Assembly: GCA_937861125.1 (NCBI GenBank)
Contig: CALMAY010000038.1
Location: 126,921 to 190,920, forward strand
Direction: 5' to 3'
Source: an uncultured bacterium
GTDB taxonomy: Bacteria > Patescibacteriota > Patescibacteriia > Magasanikbacterales > UBA922
DNA: 64,000 nucleotides
The translations under genes and the position numbers were made by a program. Shown one piece after another: positions 880 through 58,768 of this stretch. Positions within the stretch are counted from its first letter, which is position 1, and each line of letters opens with the position of its first letter. The notes under the pieces are model-generated. The model had not been told where the DNA came from, searched no databases, and worked only from the letters and a program-made list of their open reading frames with translations.

Positions 880-1716
880 ATGAAAGATATTCATATCGTG
901 TTTCTCAATTATTTCATGAAGGATGATATCCTACAGGCCGTTGAATCGGTATTGTGCGATATTGTTGATTGTCCCTACAGTGTTGTGATTACTGTCGCTG
1001 ACAATTCAAATAATGGTGATGGTATTGAGCAAGATTTGACATCTCGTTTTCCATCAGTGCGATATATTAATTCTGGTGGTAATGTTGGGTTTGGAAAGGG
1101 AAATGTAATTGGGTTTCAGACAGAAGAAGCACGATATTATTTTGCACTCAATCGTGATACAGTAATTCCAAAAGACTCCAAAACAATTGAGCGTTTAGTG
1201 CGGTTTATGGATGAGCATCCACAGATTGGGTGTATTGGACCAAAACTACTTAATATGGATGGAAGCCTTCAGTATAATTGCTACCGATTTGATTTGCCGT
1301 CTCTGCTCATCAAACCACTCAAACAAATTAATTTTGATAAAAAGTATGCATGGGTAAAAAGGTATGCAGATCGACTTGAGATGAAAGATTTTGATCATAA
1401 TAGTACGCGACCAGTAGATTGGGTACTTGGAGCTGCGATGGTGGTACGACGAGAAGTGGTAGAAAAAATTGGTTGGTTTGATGAGAGGTATTTTATGTAT
1501 CTTGAAGATTGTGATTGGTGTCGGCAAATGTGGGAGTGTCATTTTCCTGTCTATTATGTTCATGATATCGTAATCTACCATAGGCATGAGCGAGGATCAT
1601 CCAAAGTGCCGGGGATTTGGAAAGCATTGTTTAAAAACAAACTTGCACGGATACACGCCAAAAGTTGGCTTCAGTATCTATGGAAGTGGAAAGGAACACG
1701 TTATTTCACTATATAA
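880..1716 (+). CDS. Glycosyltransferase family 2
   Basis: 278-aa ORF. GT2-type N-terminal Rossmann region (HIVFLNYF, VADNSNNGD) and the YLEDCDWCRQMWECHF motif typical of rhamnosyl/GT2 transferases. Confidence 0.8.
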   Translation: MKDIHIVFLNYFMKDDILQAVESVLCDIVDCPYSVVITVADNSNNGDGIEQDLTSRFPSVRYINSGGNVGFGKGNVIGFQTEEARYYFALNRDTVIPKDSKTIERLVRFMDEHPQIGCIGPKLLNMDGSLQYNCYRFDLPSLLIKPLKQINFDKKYAWVKRYADRLEMKDFDHNSTRPVDWVLGAAMVVRREVVEKIGWFDERYFMYLEDCDWCRQMWECHFPVYYVHDIVIYHRHERGSSKVPGIWKALFKNKLARIHAKSWLQYLWKWKGTRYFTI

Positions 1717-2932: not shown

Positions 2933-4018
2933 ATGAAAATAAAGAAAGCCATCCTTACGGGTGGTGGACGAGCAACACGGCTCCATCCAATCACCACGAC
3001 AATCAACAAACATCTCCTTCCATTGGCTAACAAACCCATGTTGTTTCACGCAATTGATAAAGTGGTGGAGGCTGGGGTGACAGACATTTTTATCAATATC
3101 AATCCTGGTGAGACAGAACTACAGCGAGCGATTGGGGATGGGGGGCATTGGGGAGTTCGGATCACTTTTTTTGAACAAACTGGCGGGCCACAAGGTGTAG
3201 CACATGTGGTCAATGAGGCGGCGCAATTTATTGGAGATGATCCATTTTTGTTTTATCTCTCTGACAATATTTTGCTTGGACAAGTGACAGAGCTGGTCTC
3301 TGAGTTTAACTCTGGGTCATATGATTGTATGCTCGCACTCTCGACCGTTCCTGATCCACAGCGTTTTGGTGTGCCCGTGTTTGCTGATGATGATAGTACG
3401 CTTGTAGATGTACTTGAAAAACCAAGTGATCCGCCAAATAATTTTGCGGTGACGGGATTGTATGTATATGGTCCAAAAGTATTTTTTGATGCATTTAAAC
3501 GGATTGAAAAAAGTGCTCGTGGCGAGTATGAAATTAGTAGTATTCATTCACTCTTTCTCAAAGAAGGAAAACGAGTGGGATACAAAGAAATTACTGGTTG
3601 GTGGAAAGATACTGGAAAGCCAGAGGACCTACTCATTGCAAGTCAGTTACTGATGGATGGGATGCCTTCTGAATCATTTGTTTGTCGAGCGGCGCTTCAG
3701 AGTGATACAGTGATTGAAGGAAATGTACAGGTGGGAAGTGGTACAACGATTGGTCCAGGAGTAGTGTTGCGTGGTCCGGTGATGATTGGAGAAAATTGTA
3801 CACTAAAGCAGTGTGTGATTGGTCCGCACGTTAGTATTGCACATGGGTGTAGTATCGATGGTGCAACAATTCAAAAAAGTATTATTTTGGACAACACCAG
3901 TATTCATCTTTATCGCACTATTTCAGATAGTATTATCGGTAAACAGGTACGGCTCCATGAAGATGAATCACCGATAAAAAAAATGATTATCGGTGATAAG
4001 ACTGATATCGTGGTGTAA
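2933..4018 (+). CDS. Sugar-1-phosphate nucleotidylyltransferase (RmlA / glucose-1-phosphate thymidylyltransferase-like) with C-terminal left-handed beta-helix
   Basis: N-terminal GGGRATRLHPIT...LLPLANKPM nucleotidyltransferase loop. C-terminal hexapeptide-like repeats (VIEGNVQVGSGTTIGPGVVLRGPVMIGENC). ATG 2933 is preferred over GTG 2885, which lies inside the repeat. Confidence 0.8.
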   Translation: MKIKKAILTGGGRATRLHPITTTINKHLLPLANKPMLFHAIDKVVEAGVTDIFININPGETELQRAIGDGGHWGVRITFFEQTGGPQGVAHVVNEAAQFIGDDPFLFYLSDNILLGQVTELVSEFNSGSYDCMLALSTVPDPQRFGVPVFADDDSTLVDVLEKPSDPPNNFAVTGLYVYGPKVFFDAFKRIEKSARGEYEISSIHSLFLKEGKRVGYKEITGWWKDTGKPEDLLIASQLLMDGMPSESFVCRAALQSDTVIEGNVQVGSGTTIGPGVVLRGPVMIGENCTLKQCVIGPHVSIAHGCSIDGATIQKSIILDNTSIHLYRTISDSIIGKQVRLHEDESPIKKMIIGDKTDIVV

Positions 4019-4020
4019 TA

Positions 4021-4050
4021 AAAAGAGTGGTTGTTAGCCACTCTTTTTTA
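4021..4050. terminator. Bidirectional intrinsic terminator between convergent genes
   Basis: AAAAGAGTGG-ttgttag-CCACTCTTTTTT: 7-bp stem flanked by an A-run and a T-run. Overlaps the stop of the minus-strand gene. Confidence 0.7.
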
Positions 4051-8462: not shown

Positions 8463-8904
8463 ACAACATGGTCAGGGCTTTCGCATTGGTATTGTCCGTA
8501 CATCATGGAACGATGAGATTGTCAGTGAACTTCATGCACGTTGTGTCCAAGCTCTGCGTGATGCGGGTGTACGTGCCAAAGATATTATTTCTGTCGAAGT
8601 TCCAGGGTCGTTTGAGTTGCCTCTAGCAGCACAATTTTTGATCAAGAAGAAAAAAGTAGATGCGGTGGTAGCTCTAGGGTGTCTGATCAAGGGTGAGACA
8701 ATGCATTTTGAATATATTTGTGAGAGTGTGTCGCATGGGTTACAGCGCGTTGCGCTCGATACGAGCAAACCAGTGGTGTTTGGCGTGCTGTGTTGTCTGA
8801 CAGAATTGCAGGCAAAAGCACGTGCAAGTCGAGAACGAAAAGACCACGGGTATGAGTGGGGGCAGACGGCGGTGGAGATGGTAGGTTTGATAAAGAAAAA
8901 ATAA
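8434..8904 (+). CDS. ribH: 6,7-dimethyl-8-ribityllumazine synthase
   Basis: FRIGIVRTSWNDEI, VEVPGSFELPLAA and ALGCLIKGETMHFEYI motifs. Overlaps the riboflavin kinase gene. Alternative start ATG 8449. Confidence 0.85.
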   Translation: MTKGIMKKTKQHGQGFRIGIVRTSWNDEIVSELHARCVQALRDAGVRAKDIISVEVPGSFELPLAAQFLIKKKKVDAVVALGCLIKGETMHFEYICESVSHGLQRVALDTSKPVVFGVLCCLTELQAKARASRERKDHGYEWGQTAVEMVGLIKKK

Positions 8905-8920
8905 AACGTCTCATGTGCGA

Positions 8921-8961
8921 GAAGACCTCCTGAATATAGGAGGTCTTCTTTACTTTTTTTT
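8921..8961 (+). terminator. Intrinsic terminator after ribH
   Basis: GAAGACCTCCT-gaatat-AGGAGGTCTTC (11-bp stem) followed by a T-rich run. Confidence 0.8.
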
Positions 8962-9016
8962 GTTTGCTTGGTAGGCTATGTGGGGTGATTTAATGGCCAT
9001 TTTGGTCAAGTAAACA

Positions 9017-9202
9017 ATGAGGAGCGTCATGCAAGAAGATGCTGTTCGGTTTGTATCTCTCATGGTCGTCTTTGTTTGTTTTTTTGTTTTTGTTGTTTGG
9101 CTGAAGTATCGTCATGCGACGAAGGTGACGCTGATTAAGTCGCCACCATGGCAGCCGCCAACACCGCCCATCGTTCAGCCCCCGGAGGACCTGGACGGCT
9201 AA
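9017..9202 (+). CDS. Hypothetical small membrane protein with proline-rich tail
   Basis: GAGGAG upstream of ATG 9029. One hydrophobic helix (FVSLMVVFVCFFVFVVWL), then PPWQPPTPPIVQPPEDLDG. Followed by its own terminator. The 3' part is locally GC-rich. No family recognised. Confidence 0.35.
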   Translation: MRSVMQEDAVRFVSLMVVFVCFFVFVVWLKYRHATKVTLIKSPPWQPPTPPIVQPPEDLDG

Positions 9203-9203
9203 A

Positions 9204-9246
9204 ACGCCCGGCTCGAGCATTCGAGTTCGGGCGTCTGCACTTTTGT
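9204..9246 (+). terminator. Intrinsic terminator
   Basis: ACGCCCGG-CTCGA-gcat-TCGAG-t-TCGGGCGT compound hairpin followed by CTGCACTTTTGTT. Confidence 0.6.
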
Positions 9247-9253
9247 TAGGGAT

Positions 9254-9873
9254 TTATATGATGATTGGATCGCCCAAAAACTTTGGTTCGCGTTTGAGAA
9301 TGTATATATCGAGCAAAAGCTTTACTCGAGCAGCGTATTCTCGGATATAAACCCTTGGTGCGATATGAAATGGTATCTCTGTAGTACTATACCCGACGAT
9401 ATCTATATCGTGGTGTCTACCAATAAACACCGCTCGTTCGTTTTGAAATTTCTGAGAGATAATTGTGTACGATGATTGACCAAACACTTCTTTGGCGCGG
9501 ATGACTGAATCGAGGGTACTAAAGCCAGCATAATCAAGTATAATATCTTGTTCTGCCACACCTTGCTCCATTAACGCTTCTTTCATGTCTTTGGGTTCAT
9601 TATACTGTGTCGTTCCATTATCTCCACTGACGAGTTTTTTTCAATTTTCTGTGCGTTGTAGGCTTCTACTGCTGTGTTGATGCGGGTAGTAAAAAATATG
9701 TTTGGCAGATCACTATGTGTTTTGGCTGTACCAAAGACTAGTCCTACTTTATTTGTTGGAAGTGTTTCTATCGAGTTATATAAAAATGGTTTTGTAGAGC
9801 GGACAACAAAAAAGTTGATTGTAAGTATGATGACAATCAACCAGAGGGATAATTTGAGAATCTTTTTAATCAT
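9254..9873 (-). pseudogene. sanA: SanA/YdcF (DUF218) family protein split into two ORFs by a frameshift in an A7 tract
   Basis: ORFs 9583-9873 and 9254-9586 are the N- and C-halves of SanA (VGLVFGTAK...; ILDYAGFSTLDS...IREYAARVKLLLDIYILKREPKFLG). Shifting -1 at the A7 tract (T7 at 9635-9641 on plus) restores LVSGDNGTTQYNEPKDM, the expected SanA motif. Confidence 0.75.
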
Positions 9874-19347: not shown

Positions 19348-21773
<2,426 letters not shown>

Positions 21774-21799
21774 AAACACAAATCCTCCCGGCCCCCTAT

Positions 21800-21980
21800 C
21801 AAAATGTTTATTTTACATTATAAACATTTTGATGGAATTGGGAAGAACGTGGTGGCGCAGACTCGGTGGGATGAACCTCCTTTCCACCACTACTTTGACG
21901 ATGTCTCACGACAAGTCATTTCGTTTGGATCACCTCCTTGCGAGCCCGCTGTTCGGAGAAGAACCGAACGCACCATGTGT
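21800..21980 (-). ncRNA. Candidate structured small transcript / leader-peptide RNA (unclassified)
   Basis: Minus-strand promoter-like TTGACG-18-TATACT (22012-21983). Locally GC-rich. 13-nt AAGGAGGTGATCC (21939-21927) sits 7 nt before a 9-codon ORF (21919-21890). Second AAGGAGG motif present. Helices GTGGTGG/CCACCAC and GTTCGG/CCGAAC. 14-bp AT palindrome at 21798-21833. Confidence 0.3.
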
Positions 21981-39171: not shown

Positions 39172-39957
39172 ATGCAAAAATTAAACAAAAATTTTCGCTT
39201 CATTTTCGCTTCATTTTTGTTTATTTTTTGTTTTCCCACTTTCGTCTTAGCTGAAACAATCGACGCTGACGGTGACAAACTCTCCGATGAGCTCGAAGCG
39301 ATATATCACACCGATCCAAAAAGTCCAGATACTGATGGTGATGGATATACTGATTATAGAGAAATTTATCACGGGTATTCACCACATGATCCCAAGCGTG
39401 TCAAAATGTCATCTCGAGATGAAGATGATGATGAATTGTCTGATGCGGTAGAGTTTAAACTCAAAACGGATTTTCGTGTAGCGGATACAGATAGAGATGG
39501 TCACTCTGATTTTGAAGAGGTAATGTCAGGATTTAGTCCATTCTCCACTAGTACTGAAGCAACACTGTCACGCAAAATCGTGGTGGACAAGACAATTCAG
39601 CAGATGTATGTCGAAGTTGATGGTGGTGTGCGTGTCAAGACATATCCAGTGTCGACTGGTAATCCGTGGACACCGACGCCAAATGGGACATTTACCATGA
39701 TGAAAAAAGTACCGGTGAAACGGTACGTGGGTGTGGGATATGATTTACCAAATACGAAATGGAATATTCTCTTTAAAGAAGGCGGGTACTATATTCATGG
39801 AGCCTACTGGCACAATGATTTTGGAAAGAGCACACACTCTCATGGGTGTATAAATATGCGTACAGAGGATGCAGAAGTAGTGTATGCTTATTTTAATGAA
39901 GGAGATATGGTTGAAGTAATTGGTGAGACACCAAAGAAGAGGAAAGTAGGGACGTAA
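39172..39957 (+). CDS. L,D-transpeptidase (YkuD) with N-terminal thrombospondin-type-3-like Ca-binding repeats
   Basis: Signal/TM region. Repeats DADGDKLSDELE, DTDGDGYTDYRE, DTDRDGHSDFEE. Catalytic HGCINM motif. Confidence 0.85.
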   Translation: MQKLNKNFRFIFASFLFIFCFPTFVLAETIDADGDKLSDELEAIYHTDPKSPDTDGDGYTDYREIYHGYSPHDPKRVKMSSRDEDDDELSDAVEFKLKTDFRVADTDRDGHSDFEEVMSGFSPFSTSTEATLSRKIVVDKTIQQMYVEVDGGVRVKTYPVSTGNPWTPTPNGTFTMMKKVPVKRYVGVGYDLPNTKWNILFKEGGYYIHGAYWHNDFGKSTHSHGCINMRTEDAEVVYAYFNEGDMVEVIGETPKKRKVGT

Positions 39958-39965
39958 ATTAGTCT

Positions 39966-40003
39966 ATAAAAACAGGAAGACCGATCACGCAAGCGTGTCG
40001 GTC
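39966..40003 (-). terminator. Intrinsic terminator oriented on the minus strand
   Basis: GACCGA-c-ACGC-tt-GCGTG-a-TCGGTC hairpin (39979-40003), followed on the minus strand by TTCCTGTTTTTAT. Confidence 0.55.
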
Positions 40004-40165
40004 ATTCCCTCCTTGGCGTTGATACGGGTGGCCAACCGTATTTGCCGTACCCGTTAGGGTACACTCTTTTCTCCTCTCCTTTCGGAGCCCCTTTATTTCA
40101 AGGGTTATTACTGTCCGTCAATCGGTAGAGCCATATGCTCTCCTTGTGTCGGGTGCCGTAAAAAT
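39966..40165 (-). ncRNA. Candidate structured RNA (unclassified) in the ldt / mutY-like intergenic region
   Basis: 232-nt GC-rich gap with at least five perfect hairpins: GTACCC-taac-GGGTAC, ATACGG...CCGTAT, CCCTT-gaaata-AAGGG, CTCC-gaaa-GGAG, AGAGC-atatg-GCTCT. Minus-oriented terminator. SD-like AAGGAG motifs on the minus strand. Confidence 0.35.
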
Positions 40166-43743: not shown

Positions 43744-45018
43744 TTAGTTTGGAAGAGGGAAGTGAGTACATAGTTCTTTTACCTCCGCATGGATACGATC
43801 AAGAGTATCCTCGTCTGTGGCATGTGTCAGTGCGTCATCGATAAAGCGTGCGACGAGTTTCATCTCAGCTTCTTTCATCCCGCGAGTAGTGAGTGCGGGG
43901 GTACCTAGGCGAATACCACTTGGATCAAATGGTTTGCGTGGATCACCTGCAAAGGTGTTTTTATTCACTGTAATACCAGCGCGACTGAGTGCATCGACAC
44001 CTTGTTGGCCTGTGAGTTGTTTGTTTGTTAGATCAATGAGGAGAAGGTGTGTCTCAGTGCCACCAGTGATCAGTCGGTATCCGCGAGCCATGAGCTCATC
44101 TGCGAGGACTTGTGCGTTTTTGACTACTTGGGCAGCGTAGAGTTTGAACTCTGGTTGCATTGCTTCTTTGAGCGCAACAGCAATACCTGCGGTCTGGTGG
44201 TTGTGTGGACCACCTTGGAGTCCTGGGATGATAGCACGATCAATCAATGTTGGGATATTTTCCTTTGTGCGTTCAACTGCGACGAGTGGAGTAGATGGAT
44301 TGCCGTTGGCGAGGATGATCGCACCACGTGGACCACGAAGTGTTTTGTGGGTTGTGCTCGTAACAATATCAGCAATACCAACAGGGGATGGGTGTGCTCC
44401 ACCCGCGACGAGTCCACCAACATGACTCATGTCAGCGAGGTGAAATGCGCCAATTTCCGCAGCGATTTCACTAAAGTCTGCCCATGGATATTGTCGTGGG
44501 TATGCACTCCCACCTGAGACAATCACTTTTGGTTTGTGTTCATGAGCGAGACGACGAACTTCGTCGATGTCGATGTATCCATCTTCTTTGCATCCATATT
44601 GAACACTTTGAAAGAAACGTCCTGAATAGTTGACTTTGAGTCCGTGTGTCATGTGCCCGCCGTGGAAGAGTTTCATGCCCAGAAGTGTCTCTCCTGGTTC
44701 CATCAGGGCGACGTATGCTGCCATGTTGGCTGGTCCACCTGAGTGTGCCTGGACGTTGGCGTGTGTACAGCCAAAAAGTGCTTTAGCGCGGTCACGAGCA
44801 AGGTTTTCTATTTCGTCGACAAATTCACAGCCACCGTAGTAGCGCGCACCTGGGTATCCTTCGGAATATTTGTCTGTCAGACGACTGCCGAGTGCTTCGA
44901 TTACAGCGCCTGAAGTATGGTTTTCACTTGGGATCATCTCAAGTCCGTCTGCTTGGCGGTTGGTTTCTTTTTGGATGAGATCAAAGATATCAGGGTCTTG
45001 TTGGAGTAGATTATTCAT
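43744..45018 (-). CDS. glyA: Serine hydroxymethyltransferase
   Basis: LEMIPSENHTS, YSEGYPGARYYGG, TTHKTLRGPRG (PLP lysine). Confidence 0.95.
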   Translation of the reverse strand: MNNLLQQDPDIFDLIQKETNRQADGLEMIPSENHTSGAVIEALGSRLTDKYSEGYPGARYYGGCEFVDEIENLARDRAKALFGCTHANVQAHSGGPANMAAYVALMEPGETLLGMKLFHGGHMTHGLKVNYSGRFFQSVQYGCKEDGYIDIDEVRRLAHEHKPKVIVSGGSAYPRQYPWADFSEIAAEIGAFHLADMSHVGGLVAGGAHPSPVGIADIVTSTTHKTLRGPRGAIILANGNPSTPLVAVERTKENIPTLIDRAIIPGLQGGPHNHQTAGIAVALKEAMQPEFKLYAAQVVKNAQVLADELMARGYRLITGGTETHLLLIDLTNKQLTGQQGVDALSRAGITVNKNTFAGDPRKPFDPSGIRLGTPALTTRGMKEAEMKLVARFIDDALTHATDEDTLDRIHAEVKELCTHFPLPN

Positions 45019-45057
45019 AGGAATAGAAAAATGAAGCGTATATAGTAAAATTTTTCA

Positions 45058-45109
45058 TGTAACATGTAGCATAAAACATATAGCAATTTATTACATGCTA
45101 CATGTTACA
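45058..45109. repeat. Perfect 15-bp inverted repeat with 22-nt spacer upstream of glyA / downstream of pspC-like gene
   Basis: TGTAACATGTAGCAT (45058-45072) and ATGCTACATGTTACA (45095-45109). Confidence 0.85.
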
Positions 45110-45155
45110 GGCTGCATGTCTATTTAAATTCAAGAGATTCAAAGATCATACATTT

Positions 45156-45344
45156 CTATTTCTTCTCCGGAATAATAAACGCCGCAATAATATAGATAAT
45201 CACAAATGGGAAAATGCCAGTCAGTACTGTGAGAATAATAAACAGGAGGCGCAAGAGTGTTGGGTCGATAGCAAAGTAGTCACCGATACCTGAGAGAACA
45301 CCAGTAACCATCTTGTCTTTTGTGCTGCGATAGAGTTTTTTCAT
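45156..45344 (-). CDS. PspC-domain small membrane protein
   Basis: LYRSTKDKMVTGVLSGIGDYFAIDPTLLRLLFII PspC motif. Confidence 0.8.
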   Translation of the reverse strand: MKKLYRSTKDKMVTGVLSGIGDYFAIDPTLLRLLFIILTVLTGIFPFVIIYIIAAFIIPEKK

Positions 45345-55959: not shown

Positions 55960-57405
55960 TTACTCTATCTTAAATTCGACTAGTTCATATCTGTTGTCTT
56001 CTGTTGGTATCATCAGGCCTAATGAGTCTATATTTTTTAAATTTGTTTTTCTAATAAGTTGTTTTGTTTGTTCTTCTATTACGCTAATTTTATTATTTTT
56101 TACTAAAGAAGTAAGTGGACAGGAGAGGGTATCGTTAACTATAAATAAGTACATTATCTTGTAATCATTATCTTTGTATTTAAGCAAGTTATTTATTTTT
56201 GCGATGTCATTTTTAATTTCTGTGTATTTTTTAACAGTGTTTTGTAAGTATAATACGGATCCATTTTCAGGTATTTCTGGGGTGTATATGTGAGATATTG
56301 CTTCGATATTGTGAACATCTTTTATCTCAACTATAAATTTAATTCCGTTTTTTTCTAGTATATAATCACCTTGACCCTGGGGAAAAGGTTGATAAGATAC
56401 AAAGTTATACCCTAATTTATTTAAATAATAACCAGCCCCTATTTCATTGAGATCAGTCCATTGCTGCTTGGGTTTACCGTTAATATTTGGTCTTTTGTCA
56501 AGTATGGTTTTTCCGTTCTTGTCTTTTATTTTCTCTGCCCAATTTAACCATTTTTCAAATTCTGGAATATATGAGTTCGCAAAAAAATAGTCATTGAATT
56601 CATCTCCAGATTTTGATGTTTTGTTATTTTCATCGTAAAATTTACTAAATTGTTTTTCGTAATATTTAGCAAATGTTTGATATTTAAGTATATTTTCGAT
56701 TGCTCTTTCAGTATTTTTATTTTGTTTAAACCATTTGTTATCACTAAACCATTCAATAGAATTAAACTGTAATTTGTATGTATCGCTCTGTCTCTGTAGT
56801 CCACCGAGATAGATATATTTCTTTCCATTTTCTTTTGTAGAGAGAATCGCACGTGTCATCATACCGAGCCCCATATCTTTGGGTACTGTTTCTAGATTGT
56901 AGAATGGATAGGAGTAGTGGATTATCTCAGGAGTTTCTACTGCGATACAGTAGCCGACAGATTCACCATTGAGTGTATAGACAAACAAACGATTGAAATC
57001 TTTGCGTCCTGCGATGAGAAGCTCTTTTACCTTGTTTGCACTAAAAACACCTGGACCAAATTTGGTTTCATAAAAATCTTTGGCGAGTTTGCCAATTGTC
57101 CAGTCGTAGTCAATGAGGGGGAGTGTCTGTACGTGGAGCTCCAATCCTTCGGTTTTTCGTAATATTCTACGATTTTCACTCGAGAGTTCAAATGCTGAAA
57201 GATCAATCCGAACACTACGTGTCTGCTCCATGTGTCCCTCACTTGGGCGAGTAAAAACAAAACCACGATCGTACATCGTGTTGATATTCTCGGGAGAGAA
57301 ATCTTTTATTGTTTGTTCATCCCATTTGAGGTACATATGCTTGACAAAGATAGTTTTTTGTGCTATATTGAGCTGTTCTCGTGTCTGCCTGCTAACAATG
57401 ACCAT
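55960..57405 (-). CDS. ATE/Bpt-family aminoacyl-tRNA-protein transferase-like domain fused to an AT-rich PD-(D/E)xK-like C-terminal domain
   Basis: N-half: MYDRGFVFTR...RIDLSAFELSSENRRIL and YSYPFYN...MGLGMMTRAILSTKENGKKYIYLGG...YKLQF, colinear with bacterial Bpt. C-half: GDYILEKNGIKFIVEIKD nuclease-like motif. Alternative start ATG 57336. Confidence 0.6.
   Translation of the reverse strand: MVIVSRQTREQLNIAQKTIFVKHMYLKWDEQTIKDFSPENINTMYDRGFVFTRPSEGHMEQTRSVRIDLSAFELSSENRRILRKTEGLELHVQTLPLIDYDWTIGKLAKDFYETKFGPGVFSANKVKELLIAGRKDFNRLFVYTLNGESVGYCIAVETPEIIHYSYPFYNLETVPKDMGLGMMTRAILSTKENGKKYIYLGGLQRQSDTYKLQFNSIEWFSDNKWFKQNKNTERAIENILKYQTFAKYYEKQFSKFYDENNKTSKSGDEFNDYFFANSYIPEFEKWLNWAEKIKDKNGKTILDKRPNINGKPKQQWTDLNEIGAGYYLNKLGYNFVSYQPFPQGQGDYILEKNGIKFIVEIKDVHNIEAISHIYTPEIPENGSVLYLQNTVKKYTEIKNDIAKINNLLKYKDNDYKIMYLFIVNDTLSCPLTSLVKNNKISVIEEQTKQLIRKTNLKNIDSLGLMIPTEDNRYELVEFKIE
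57341..57369 (+). promoter_or_regulatory. Strong sigma-70-like promoter of the antisense small RNA
   Basis: TTGACA (57341-57346), 17 nt, TATATT (57364-57369), preceded by TGTGc. Confidence 0.7.
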
Positions 57406-57618
57406 TTAACAATCTGGCTAGAGGTATTGGTCCGGAGATAGAATTCGGCCCTTACTGATAAACTGCTGTGTATATAAGCGGCGGGTTGGTGAGGGCACTA
57501 TATAATCGAACAGGCTCCGGCCGGAATTGCGGCCACAGAGGGTCTTACGTTACAGAGTGGACACGAGAACACCCACTTAAAGTTAATCATACACATTGTA
57601 CTGTGTGTGTTTTTATTT
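57376..57618 (+). ncRNA. Unclassified structured small RNA, antisense to the mraY / ATE-like operon
   Basis: Consensus promoter. 11-bp terminal helix GTTCTCGTGTC (57375-57385) / GACACGAGAAC (57560-57570). Adjacent helix CTG(C)TAAC/GTTACAG. Hairpin CTGCTG...CGGCGG has G-U pairs that form only on the plus strand. Terminator ATACACA-ttgtac-TGTGTGT plus GTTTTTATTT (57589-57618). Confidence 0.6.
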
Positions 57619-58768
57619 ATAACAACGCCACCCAAACCCCAAATAACACCACAATCGCATGAATCACCCAAAACCGCATAACCGTTTTTTCTTCACTCCA
57701 GCCACGAAATGCGAGGTGATAGTGAATGGGTGCCATTTTGAAAATACGACGCCCGAGGAGGTAGCGTCCGAGTACCTGGATGATGACAGATGCGAGCTCG
57801 GCATAAAAAATAAAACCAAGCAGTGGAATAAGAAGGAGTTGGTTCATCACAATGGCATTGATGGCAAAGAGAGAGCCGAGTCCGAGAGATCCAACATCTC
57901 CCATCTCAAAACGTGCTGGTTTGATATTGAAATAGGTGTAGGTGAGGAGAGCGCCGACAGTAGTCGCGTTGAGGAGGGTGATCGCCTCCATACCCTCAAG
58001 CCATGAGAGTATTGTTAGGGCACTAAAACTGATAATGAGTGACCCGCCAGCGAGTCCGTCCATACCATCAGTGATGTTGACTGCATTGGCGGTCGCCATG
58101 ACAAAAAAGATAATGAGAGGAATAATCCAAAAACCAATACTGACAAACCCATCAAATGGAATGTGAATTGTCTGCCAGTGTTCACCGAGTTTGAAATAGA
58201 TCCAGTATGCTGTGACAGCGCCAGCGATAAATTGGAAGAGAAGTTTTTCGTGTACATGTACGCCCTTGCCTGGATGGCGTGAGAGCCAGACACTTATGCG
58301 TTTGAACGCGTGCCAAGGGAGTGAAATGATATACCAAATGCGCATGTACCAGTATTTGTGTATACGTGCGAGGCGGAGGATCTGACTGAGTTTGCGACTA
58401 CGTCGTTCGTGTCCGTAGATATGGAGAATATCGTCAATACCACCGAGCAGTGCCGAGAGGAGCATAACTCCGATGGGTACCCATGTCCATTTGCGCTCCC
58501 AGTTGAACAGCATGGTGATGAGTGCGACCGTAACGATGACGAGGAGTCCGCCCATGATTGGAGTACCGACTTTGTTTGCGCGGTCTGCGATCATGTGTGT
58601 CTGGTCGTATTCATTGTGTCGAGTGATGCGATATCGGTAGAGTACTTTGGTGAGGAGTGGTGCAAAGAGAAATGAGATACCACAAGCACACAATCCAAAG
58701 AAAATAGCGGTATGAAGGAGGTCAATAGAGGCGATAGCGAGGTTCATAGTTTGGCTATAATACAACAA
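57617..58768 (-). CDS. mraY: Phospho-N-acetylmuramoyl-pentapeptide transferase
   Basis: NAVNITDGMDGLA, MGDVGSLGLG, KMAPIHYHL. Contains a longer-than-usual cytoplasmic insertion (HIYGHERRSRKL...). Possible alternative start at the MNLAIAS Met. Confidence 0.9.
   Translation of the reverse strand: MLYYSQTMNLAIASIDLLHTAIFFGLCACGISFLFAPLLTKVLYRYRITRHNEYDQTHMIADRANKVGTPIMGGLLVIVTVALITMLFNWERKWTWVPIGVMLLSALLGGIDDILHIYGHERRSRKLSQILRLARIHKYWYMRIWYIISLPWHAFKRISVWLSRHPGKGVHVHEKLLFQFIAGAVTAYWIYFKLGEHWQTIHIPFDGFVSIGFWIIPLIIFFVMATANAVNITDGMDGLAGGSLIISFSALTILSWLEGMEAITLLNATTVGALLTYTYFNIKPARFEMGDVGSLGLGSLFAINAIVMNQLLLIPLLGFIFYAELASVIIQVLGRYLLGRRIFKMAPIHYHLAFRGWSEEKTVMRFWVIHAIVVLFGVWVALL

Follow-up and report, generated by a model that had tools for sequence, protein, structure and literature searches.

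The 64-kb stretch of DNA analysed here (the window), from a Magasanikbacteria genome, carries a cell-wall gene cluster on its minus strand, in which the upstream gene of the operon, mraY (57617..58768; PF00953; stop codon 57617-57619), is followed by an ATE_C/GNAT-like (aminoacyl-tRNA transferase-like) gene (55960..57336; ATE-like gene below), murC and a NUDIX gene. The nearest named relatives, judged by MraY, belong to Candidatus Magasanikbacteria and other Patescibacteria. The spacer between mraY and the ATE-like gene measures 280 bp, and its opposite (plus) strand is filled by an element (57341-57618) that has the makings of a small RNA (sRNA) gene, comprising a promoter, an elaborate predicted fold and an intrinsic terminator. 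On these sequence signals the element is a credible new candidate sRNA gene that belongs to no curated family.

Organization and predicted fold of the spacer element

The sigma-70-type promoter of the element (57341..57369, plus strand) consists of a -35 box TTGACA (57341-57346), a 17-nt spacer and an extended -10 element, TGcTATATT (57361-57369, with TATATT at 57364-57369). In a consensus scan it scores 11/12 with the extended -10 TG and is the only site at this level on either strand of the window, where 21 sites reach 10/12, so that the near-consensus promoter claimed in a preliminary description of this DNA can be retained. The intrinsic terminator (57588..57618, plus strand) has an 8-bp stem (57588-57609) with a 6-nt loop and a U-run extending to 57618, the last two U of which are complementary to that of mraY (57617-57619); the overlap with that stop codon had likewise been described, as had the lack of a plus-strand gene downstream, and both observations hold, the next gene being mraY on the other strand. 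A promoter and a terminator of its own opposite a transcribed region, which characterize cis-encoded antisense sRNAs, are therefore present as sequence signals.

The preliminary description had also placed the promoter inside the ATE-like open reading frame (ORF), and this is true of the mechanical ORF, which comprises 481 amino acids and has its first position at 57405. Seven ATE-like homologs, however, align only from M24 (MYLKWDE) of that frame onward, and one of these begins exactly there, so that the true start of the gene is ATG 57336. The promoter consequently lies outside the real gene, its -35 box being 4 nt from the start codon on the opposite strand, and the candidate RNA gene is situated wholly within the 280-bp spacer without ORF overlap. 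With the start at 57336, there is no support for the envisaged complementarity of the RNA to the initial ~30 nt of the ATE-like frame. On the operon strand, the consensus scan detected no promoter of at least 9/12 within the spacer; the ATE-like gene and murC are thus probably dependent on read-through from mraY. The terminator hairpin of the RNA gene could also halt mraY transcripts.

The predicted transcript of ~240 nt would adopt a rod-shaped fold of ~195 nt closed by a ~21-bp stem. The 5′ strand of this stem (57375..57396) begins at the predicted transcript start and is made up of the 11-bp P1 followed by UGC, CUG, a bulged C and UAAC (pair probabilities 0.98-1.00), and its 3′ strand (57549..57570) reads GUUA, CAG, a bulged A, GUG and GACACGAGAAC. 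Positions 57375-57385 pair with 57560-57570 at a probability of 1.00, and the helix is then extended by UGC/GUG, which contributes two G-U pairs, CUG/CAG and UAAC/GUUA to reach ~21 bp with two bulges. Within the closed domain, core block A, GUAUUGG(U)CCGGAGAUAGA (57424..57442), supplies the 5′ strand (57429-57430, bulged U 57431, 57432-57437) and core block B, ACAGGCUCCGGCCGGA (57510..57525), the 3′ strand (57515-57522) of a bulged-U helix, GG(U)CCGGAG/CUCCGGCC, which is predicted at p 0.67 and is favoured by the homolog described below. The region between the two blocks (57444..57509) is a variable apical domain composed of a UUCG/CGAA stem, two G-U-rich stems of 12 and 7 bp and a bulge of 10 nt, ACUAUAUAAU (p 0.62-0.98). 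A C-rich linker, ACCCACUUAAAGUUAAU (57571..57587), unpaired in both the minimum free energy (MFE) and centroid folds, leads from the closing stem to the terminator. Much of this architecture had been anticipated, namely the closure of a ~195-nt domain by pairing of the first 11 nt with 57560-57570, the second helix CTG(C)TAAC/GTTACAG and an internal hairpin CTGCTG/CGGCGG, which is recovered as CUGCUGU/GCGGCGG at p 0.97. The further hairpin GGCCG-gaattg-CGGCC is predicted only as a minority alternative (p 0.33) that competes with the bulged-U helix.

The fold is strongly strand-specific. The 243-nt transcript has a predicted free energy of -87.7 kcal/mol (z -4.74) on the plus strand versus -62.4 kcal/mol (z -1.55) on the minus strand, and the 196-nt closed domain gives z -6.24 versus -3.34. 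The plus-strand fold is more stable by 22-25 kcal/mol, and 14 of the 66 pairs in the MFE fold are G-U pairs that would be replaced by C-A mismatches on the opposite strand. Since a few other regions of the window are comparably structured in a crude 200-nt sliding scan, the fold alone is not unique; what is unique in the window is the combination of promoter, start-anchored helix and terminator. The proposal that this is an independent, structured plus-strand sRNA gene is supported, and more strongly than the preliminary description could show, by the rank of the promoter, by strand-specific G-U pairing and by a probable homolog at the same site.

A probable homolog and the distribution of the element

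Twelve related contigs, chosen for the similarity of their MraY or ATE-like proteins or for ORFs extended at the N terminus, were looked up, and one of them contains a probable homolog. This contig, L031 (Logan SRR33375159), derives from a related member of the Magasanikbacteria (69.7% identity in MraY, 59% in the ATE-like protein) and has a 214-bp mraY/ATE-like spacer with an element of matching architecture, identically placed and oriented. Its extended -10-like sequence GTGgTAGTTTGA aligns with GTGcTATATTGA of the window, so that the -10 region is partly kept (GTGNTANNTTGA). The closing stem, GCCCUUGUG../..CACAAGGGC, is unrelated in sequence to that of the window and nevertheless begins at the expected transcript start. 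The internal core, in contrast, is shared: block A reads GUAUAGA(U)CCGGAGAUAAA (L031 2989-2971), identical to the window at 16/19 positions, and block B reads ACAAGGCUCCGGUCGGA (L031 2945-2932), identical at 13/14. The core contains a GC helix of 8 bp with a bulged U, and L031 retains every one of its 8 pairs, with a G-C to A-U double change adjoining the conserved U; the purine-rich internal loops that flank the helix are conserved as well. The apical region is not conserved and amounts to 22 nt in L031 versus ~66 nt in the window. A C-rich linker, CCCCUCAAAAC, occupies the same place as that of the window, and the terminator hairpin of 12-13 bp has a U-run ending in the mraY stop codon, an arrangement like that of the window. 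The L031 fold gives z -2.4 on the RNA strand (-4.0 including the terminator) versus -0.5 on the operon strand.

The two-block colinear score of 47 was reached in none of 1500 dinucleotide shuffles (maximum 45), and the best single segment was equalled in 11/1500. The two RNAs are therefore probably homologous and would constitute a small family, the core of which can be described as block A GUAUWGR[U]CCGGAGAUARA and block B ACA(A)GGCUCCGGYCGGA, set in a long closing stem, with a terminator after it that abuts the stop codon of mraY. Both members display these features, which lends weak support to a proposed new family, 'mraY-ATE spacer RNA'. Contig L005 also carries the element; it represents the same genome as the window and was not counted as a further member. 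L031 additionally encodes a 145-amino-acid protein without a Pfam match upstream of mraY (1153-1590, minus strand), in a gene located on the same strand as the RNA, and no gene in this orientation was seen at that position in the other relatives examined.

In the closest relatives of the window, L001 and L030 (MraY 80% identical in both), and in L002 and L032, mraY and the ATE-like gene lie 1-4 nt apart; L032 is the nearest L031 relative fetched (MraY 87.5% identical) and is without the element. The candidate RNA gene is accessory, judging from these loci, and its distribution is patchy. The patchiness could reflect either an ancestral gene that has been lost repeatedly or movement from lineage to lineage by recombination through the conserved flanks, although conservation of the core alone argues against recent transfer. 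Elsewhere the mraY/ATE-like junction is occupied by other sequences, including a small membrane-protein ORF in L006 (~860-1170), a 27-bp perfect hairpin in L009 (~3060-3125), heptamer repeats (CACGTAT, GTGCTAT) in L003 (5132-5202), a 20-bp perfect inverted repeat in L040 (~355-445) and a 120-nt spacer whose two ends pair in a stem, ACACAGAU/AUCUGUGU, in L007 (3045-3166); the gene map of P0195 shows no spacer. The junction thus appears as a hot spot for differing elements, the spacer being 1-4 nt in most other relatives.

No further homologs were found by nhmmer or blastn on all fetched loci, and a fuzzy-motif scan of the loci gave no member beyond L031. A scan of the genome collection with TTGGTCCGGAG..CTCCGGCCGG, a pattern predating L031, returned 12 chance matches in unrelated GC-rich phyla, and a metagenome scan with a 20-mer chosen before L031 was known returned six chance matches. 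DNA-pattern scans of viral sequences and a viral scan with MraY yielded chance matches or none, BLAST against phages and E. coli found nothing, and no second copy of the element occurs in the 64-kb window or in ~82 kb of related loci.

The ATE-like gene is itself of interest. An ATE_C/GNAT-like gene lies between mraY and murC in every relative examined (L001-L009, L030-L032 and L040), and in several relatives it is fused to a Mur ligase (P0125, P0131, P0135 and P0143); the constant position and the fusions suggest that peptidoglycan precursor synthesis in this clade involves a step that depends on tRNA. The C-terminal ~250 amino acids of the window's protein (55960-56712, minus strand) are encoded by DNA of 25-32% GC, compared with ~45% GC for the genome. 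The relatives of the protein that were seen are typically 215-290 amino acids long, longer if fused, and none aligns over this extension, which has no Pfam or PHROG match and no genuine homolog in 1.84 billion representative proteins, the single match being a spurious tandem-repeat protein. Its AlphaFold2 model is poor (predicted local distance difference test, pLDDT, 43.6). The extension shows an alpha-beta-beta-beta-alpha arrangement with GDY...VEIK that resembles the core of PD-(D/E)xK nucleases, and it is probably a foreign insertion that produced an in-frame fusion.

Several other places in the window are structured. At 2847-2925, a 25-30-nt inverted repeat of CTACTCTGC repeats fills a 57-bp spacer between two plus-strand ORFs and, on both strands, gives some of the strongest structure seen in any 200-nt window (z about -5.8 and -6.9); this is a hairpin like those of repetitive extragenic palindromic (REP) sequences, in the style of the heptamer repeats in L003. 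Other regions that fold with z-scores of -4 to -6 are 8751-8950 (plus strand), 3851-4050 (minus), 39901-40100, 21751-21950 (minus) and 45001-45200 (minus), none of which has an Rfam match at the gathering score; the first of these holds an ordinary terminator after an ORF ending at 8904. The ~1-kb gap that follows (8904-9870) is unusually long for this genome and contains a small ORF (9030-9203), read as hydrophobic and proline-rich, then a GC-rich terminator-like hairpin, and ~600 bp on its minus strand look like a disrupted gene.

Known RNA families and alternative explanations

Searches of the whole window and 11 related loci against Rfam 15 at gathering scores detected only tRNA-Ser. At E<=10, neither the spacer region (57250-57700 and 57372-57575) nor L031 (2850-3075) matched ribonuclease P (RNase P), 6S, signal recognition particle (SRP), transfer-messenger RNA (tmRNA) or Y RNA models; weak, sub-threshold and unrelated matches were to FourU (25.7 bits, gathering score 60), Pab91 and SCARNA7. 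ARAGORN likewise identified no tmRNA, and the earlier view that the RNA is not RNase P, 6S, SRP or tmRNA is borne out. A retron noncoding RNA (msr-msd) was rejected, as no plus-strand ORF follows and there is no reverse-transcriptase gene. Of the resemblances to attC sites, K-turns, CsrA sites, Y RNA (UGGUCCG) and tRNA-like structures (stem plus NCC), none fits both members. The likeness to 6S RNA consists in a length of ~190 nt, a strong promoter of its own, a rod-like fold in which internal loops follow a closing stem and, in the window copy, a single-stranded UAUAAU on the 3′ strand. A 6S-like reading, in which this UAUAAU after the 19-bp apical stem would serve as a promoter mimic, was however dropped since L031 lacks the domain. 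A region resembling a bubble can be traced in the window copy at 63-72/122-139 (RNA numbering, 1 = window 57376) and not in L031, which is without the apical stem and bulge, so that the central bubble that defines 6S RNA is not a feature of the family.

The resemblance of the core to RNase P requires closer consideration. The preliminary description had pointed out that no P4 helix could be built. A P4-like helix can in fact be built from GG(U)CCGGAG/CUCCGGCC, with ACAGG (57510-57514) directly 5′ of its 3′ strand, the earlier attempt having failed because ACAGAG at 57535-57540 was used instead; the accompanying judgement that the RNA does not match RNase P stands. In E. coli M1 RNA, P4 is formed by AAG(U)CCGGG and ACAGAA-CCCGGCUU, and among RNase P RNAs universal conserved region CR-I is GAGGAAAGUCC, CR-V is ACAGAA..GGCUUA and the A-rich junction J3/4 is GGAAAG. 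The spacer RNA resembles this arrangement in its nested helix, built around CCGG and bearing one bulged U two to three pairs from the outer end, in the ACAG that immediately precedes the 3′ strand (GG(U)CCGG/CCGGCC after ACAG) and in the position of the helix inside a long terminal stem of the RNA ends, and the order of closing stem, helix, hairpin, ACAGG, helix and closing stem is that of the RNase P catalytic domain. Furthermore, RNase P RNAs of the Candidate Phyla Radiation (CPR) are reported to be diverged and often missed at default Rfam thresholds (PMC8172020). It has nonetheless to be regarded as very improbable that the element encodes an extremely reduced RNase P RNA or a P4-core decoy, consisting of P1-P2, a P4-like bulged-U helix after ACAG and one hairpin. 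No RNase P model scores even at E<=10 in either member, and the flanks of the helix read GUAUWGR and YCGGA rather than GGAAAG and GGCUUA, the universal CR-I and CR-V nucleotides being missing. Inside the helix there is just one hairpin, of 66 nt in the window and 22 nt in L031, the latter length leaving no room for P15 or a specificity domain, and P3 is missing too. The RNA core measures 137-195 nt and, being absent at this site from close relatives, is accessory and not universal. There is an equally slight chance that the core, with its P4-type helix, bulged U and ACAG junction, works as a mimic of the catalytic centre of RNase P or is a remnant of it, in a bacterial RNase P-like RNA reduced to P1-P2-P4 plus a hairpin (137-195 nt); if so, it could be a minimal protein-dependent catalytic RNA or a decoy that titrates RnpA.

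The remaining explanations concern the strand and the mode of action. A trans-acting ribonucleoprotein or protein-sequestering RNA, in which the bulged-U helix and loops would form a protein site, the closing stem and terminator would provide stability and the location would be incidental, is a genuine if doubtful possibility. Retention of a ~35-nt core while the closing stem and apical domain are replaced is typical of ribonucleoprotein RNAs, and the promoter is very strong and the 5′ end protected, but there is no linked partner gene and no match to any Rfam family, including 6S, Y RNA, SRP and CsrB-type RNAs, and occurrence at one site in two genomes only, with absence from close relatives, would be unusual for a housekeeping ribonucleoprotein. 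The patchy distribution could instead point to a non-functional or selfish palindromic insertion, comparable to REP sequences or miniature inverted-repeat transposable elements (MITEs), in a hairpin hot-spot spacer where promoter and terminator matches are fortuitous. The element does resemble these in being located in a spacer directly after a stop codon and in having complementary ends; unrelated long hairpins or repeats occur at the same junction in L009, L040, L003 and L007, and the window contains the other repeat-built spacer hairpin at 2847-2925. This is nevertheless unlikely, because no second copy was found in the window or in ~82 kb of related loci and no target-site duplication was seen. 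The terminal stems of the two members differ completely although an internal core persists, a pattern contrary to that of transposase-recognized ends and in keeping with a functional RNA. Moreover, the G-U pairs that lengthen the helix are available only to plus-strand RNA, and the helix begins at the predicted transcript start in both genomes, downstream in the window of the best promoter in 64 kb. Finally, the functional strand might be that of the operon, with the structure acting as an intercistronic mRNA processing site, stabilizer or attenuator for the ATE-like gene and murC. The core helix CCGGAG/CUCCGG has no G-U pair and can form on both strands, and the minus strand of the window is more structured than shuffled sequences (z -3.3), but the margin in stability and the 14 G-U pairs of the plus strand, the z of only -0.5 for the operon strand of L031 and the direction of both promoter and terminator, which point the other way, make this decidedly unlikely.

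A possible cis-acting role in the cell-wall operon

The explanation that we favour, at somewhat less than an even chance, is that the 280-bp spacer carries a real, independently transcribed and stable sRNA gene that acts in cis, through antisense pairing and transcriptional interference, and whose conserved core probably binds a protein. The operon context is consistent with this, as mraY, the ATE-like gene, murC and the NUDIX gene are on one strand and in most relatives the genes are 1-4 nt apart. The ATE-like gene, murC and the following genes would be transcribed by read-through from mraY across the RNA gene, and the strong head-on promoter and the hairpins of the RNA gene would impede this read-through. 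The antisense RNA, if abundant, would be fully complementary to the mraY/ATE-like intercistronic mRNA and could expose it to double-strand-specific cleavage, much as the preliminary description had envisaged with RNase III. Together, interference and cleavage may uncouple the expression of mraY from that of the ATE-like gene and murC, and the putative protein-binding core may confer stability on the RNA or give it a second function.

A number of observations weigh against the cis-acting explanation. A pure antisense role leaves conservation of the internal core amid divergence unexplained; as antisense pairing does not account for it, a bound protein is suggested, and the trans-acting ribonucleoprotein or sponge is for this reason the main rival. 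Only two family members are known, and the element is absent in the closest relatives of both carriers (L001, L030 and L032), which indicates that it is dispensable. The L031 promoter is weak (7-8/12). Homology consists of two short blocks, recovered by blastn-short as two colinear segments with E 0.05 each, and the similarity of the two RNAs is not detected by nhmmer. The covariation analysis of homologous mraY-downstream spacers that had been recommended does give one compensatory pair, but 239/500 shuffles are equally good, and with two members the covariation is without statistical weight.

Antisense sRNAs in intra-operon spacers have precedents in other bacteria. In Streptomyces, scr4677 is encoded between SCO4677 and SCO4676 (PMC3896431), and in E. 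coli GadY acts at gadX-gadW with RNase III (Opdyke et al., 2011, as cited in PMC3896431). The spacer RNA resembles both in having its own promoter and terminator, in lying opposite a spacer between co-oriented genes near the downstream start and in its expected effect on the fate of a polycistronic mRNA. It differs in being much longer and more elaborate, with a 195-nt rod and a paired 5′ end, and in that its core is conserved while the complementary flanks have diverged; it is unrelated to them in sequence and shows no evident Hfq-type features.

Almost nothing is known of regulatory RNAs in the CPR, and literature searches on small RNAs, 6S RNA and noncoding-RNA covariation in this group yielded nothing relevant. 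The value of the finding is limited for now by the two members and the patchy distribution. The window RNA provides, however, a concrete candidate with clear boundaries, placed within the cell-wall cluster (mraY, ATE-like gene and murC) of a Magasanikbacteria genome, with a conserved core suggestive of a specific partner. Should read-through into the ATE-like gene and murC indeed be under its control, the RNA would provide a first example of peptidoglycan precursor synthesis being regulated by RNA in these reduced genomes.

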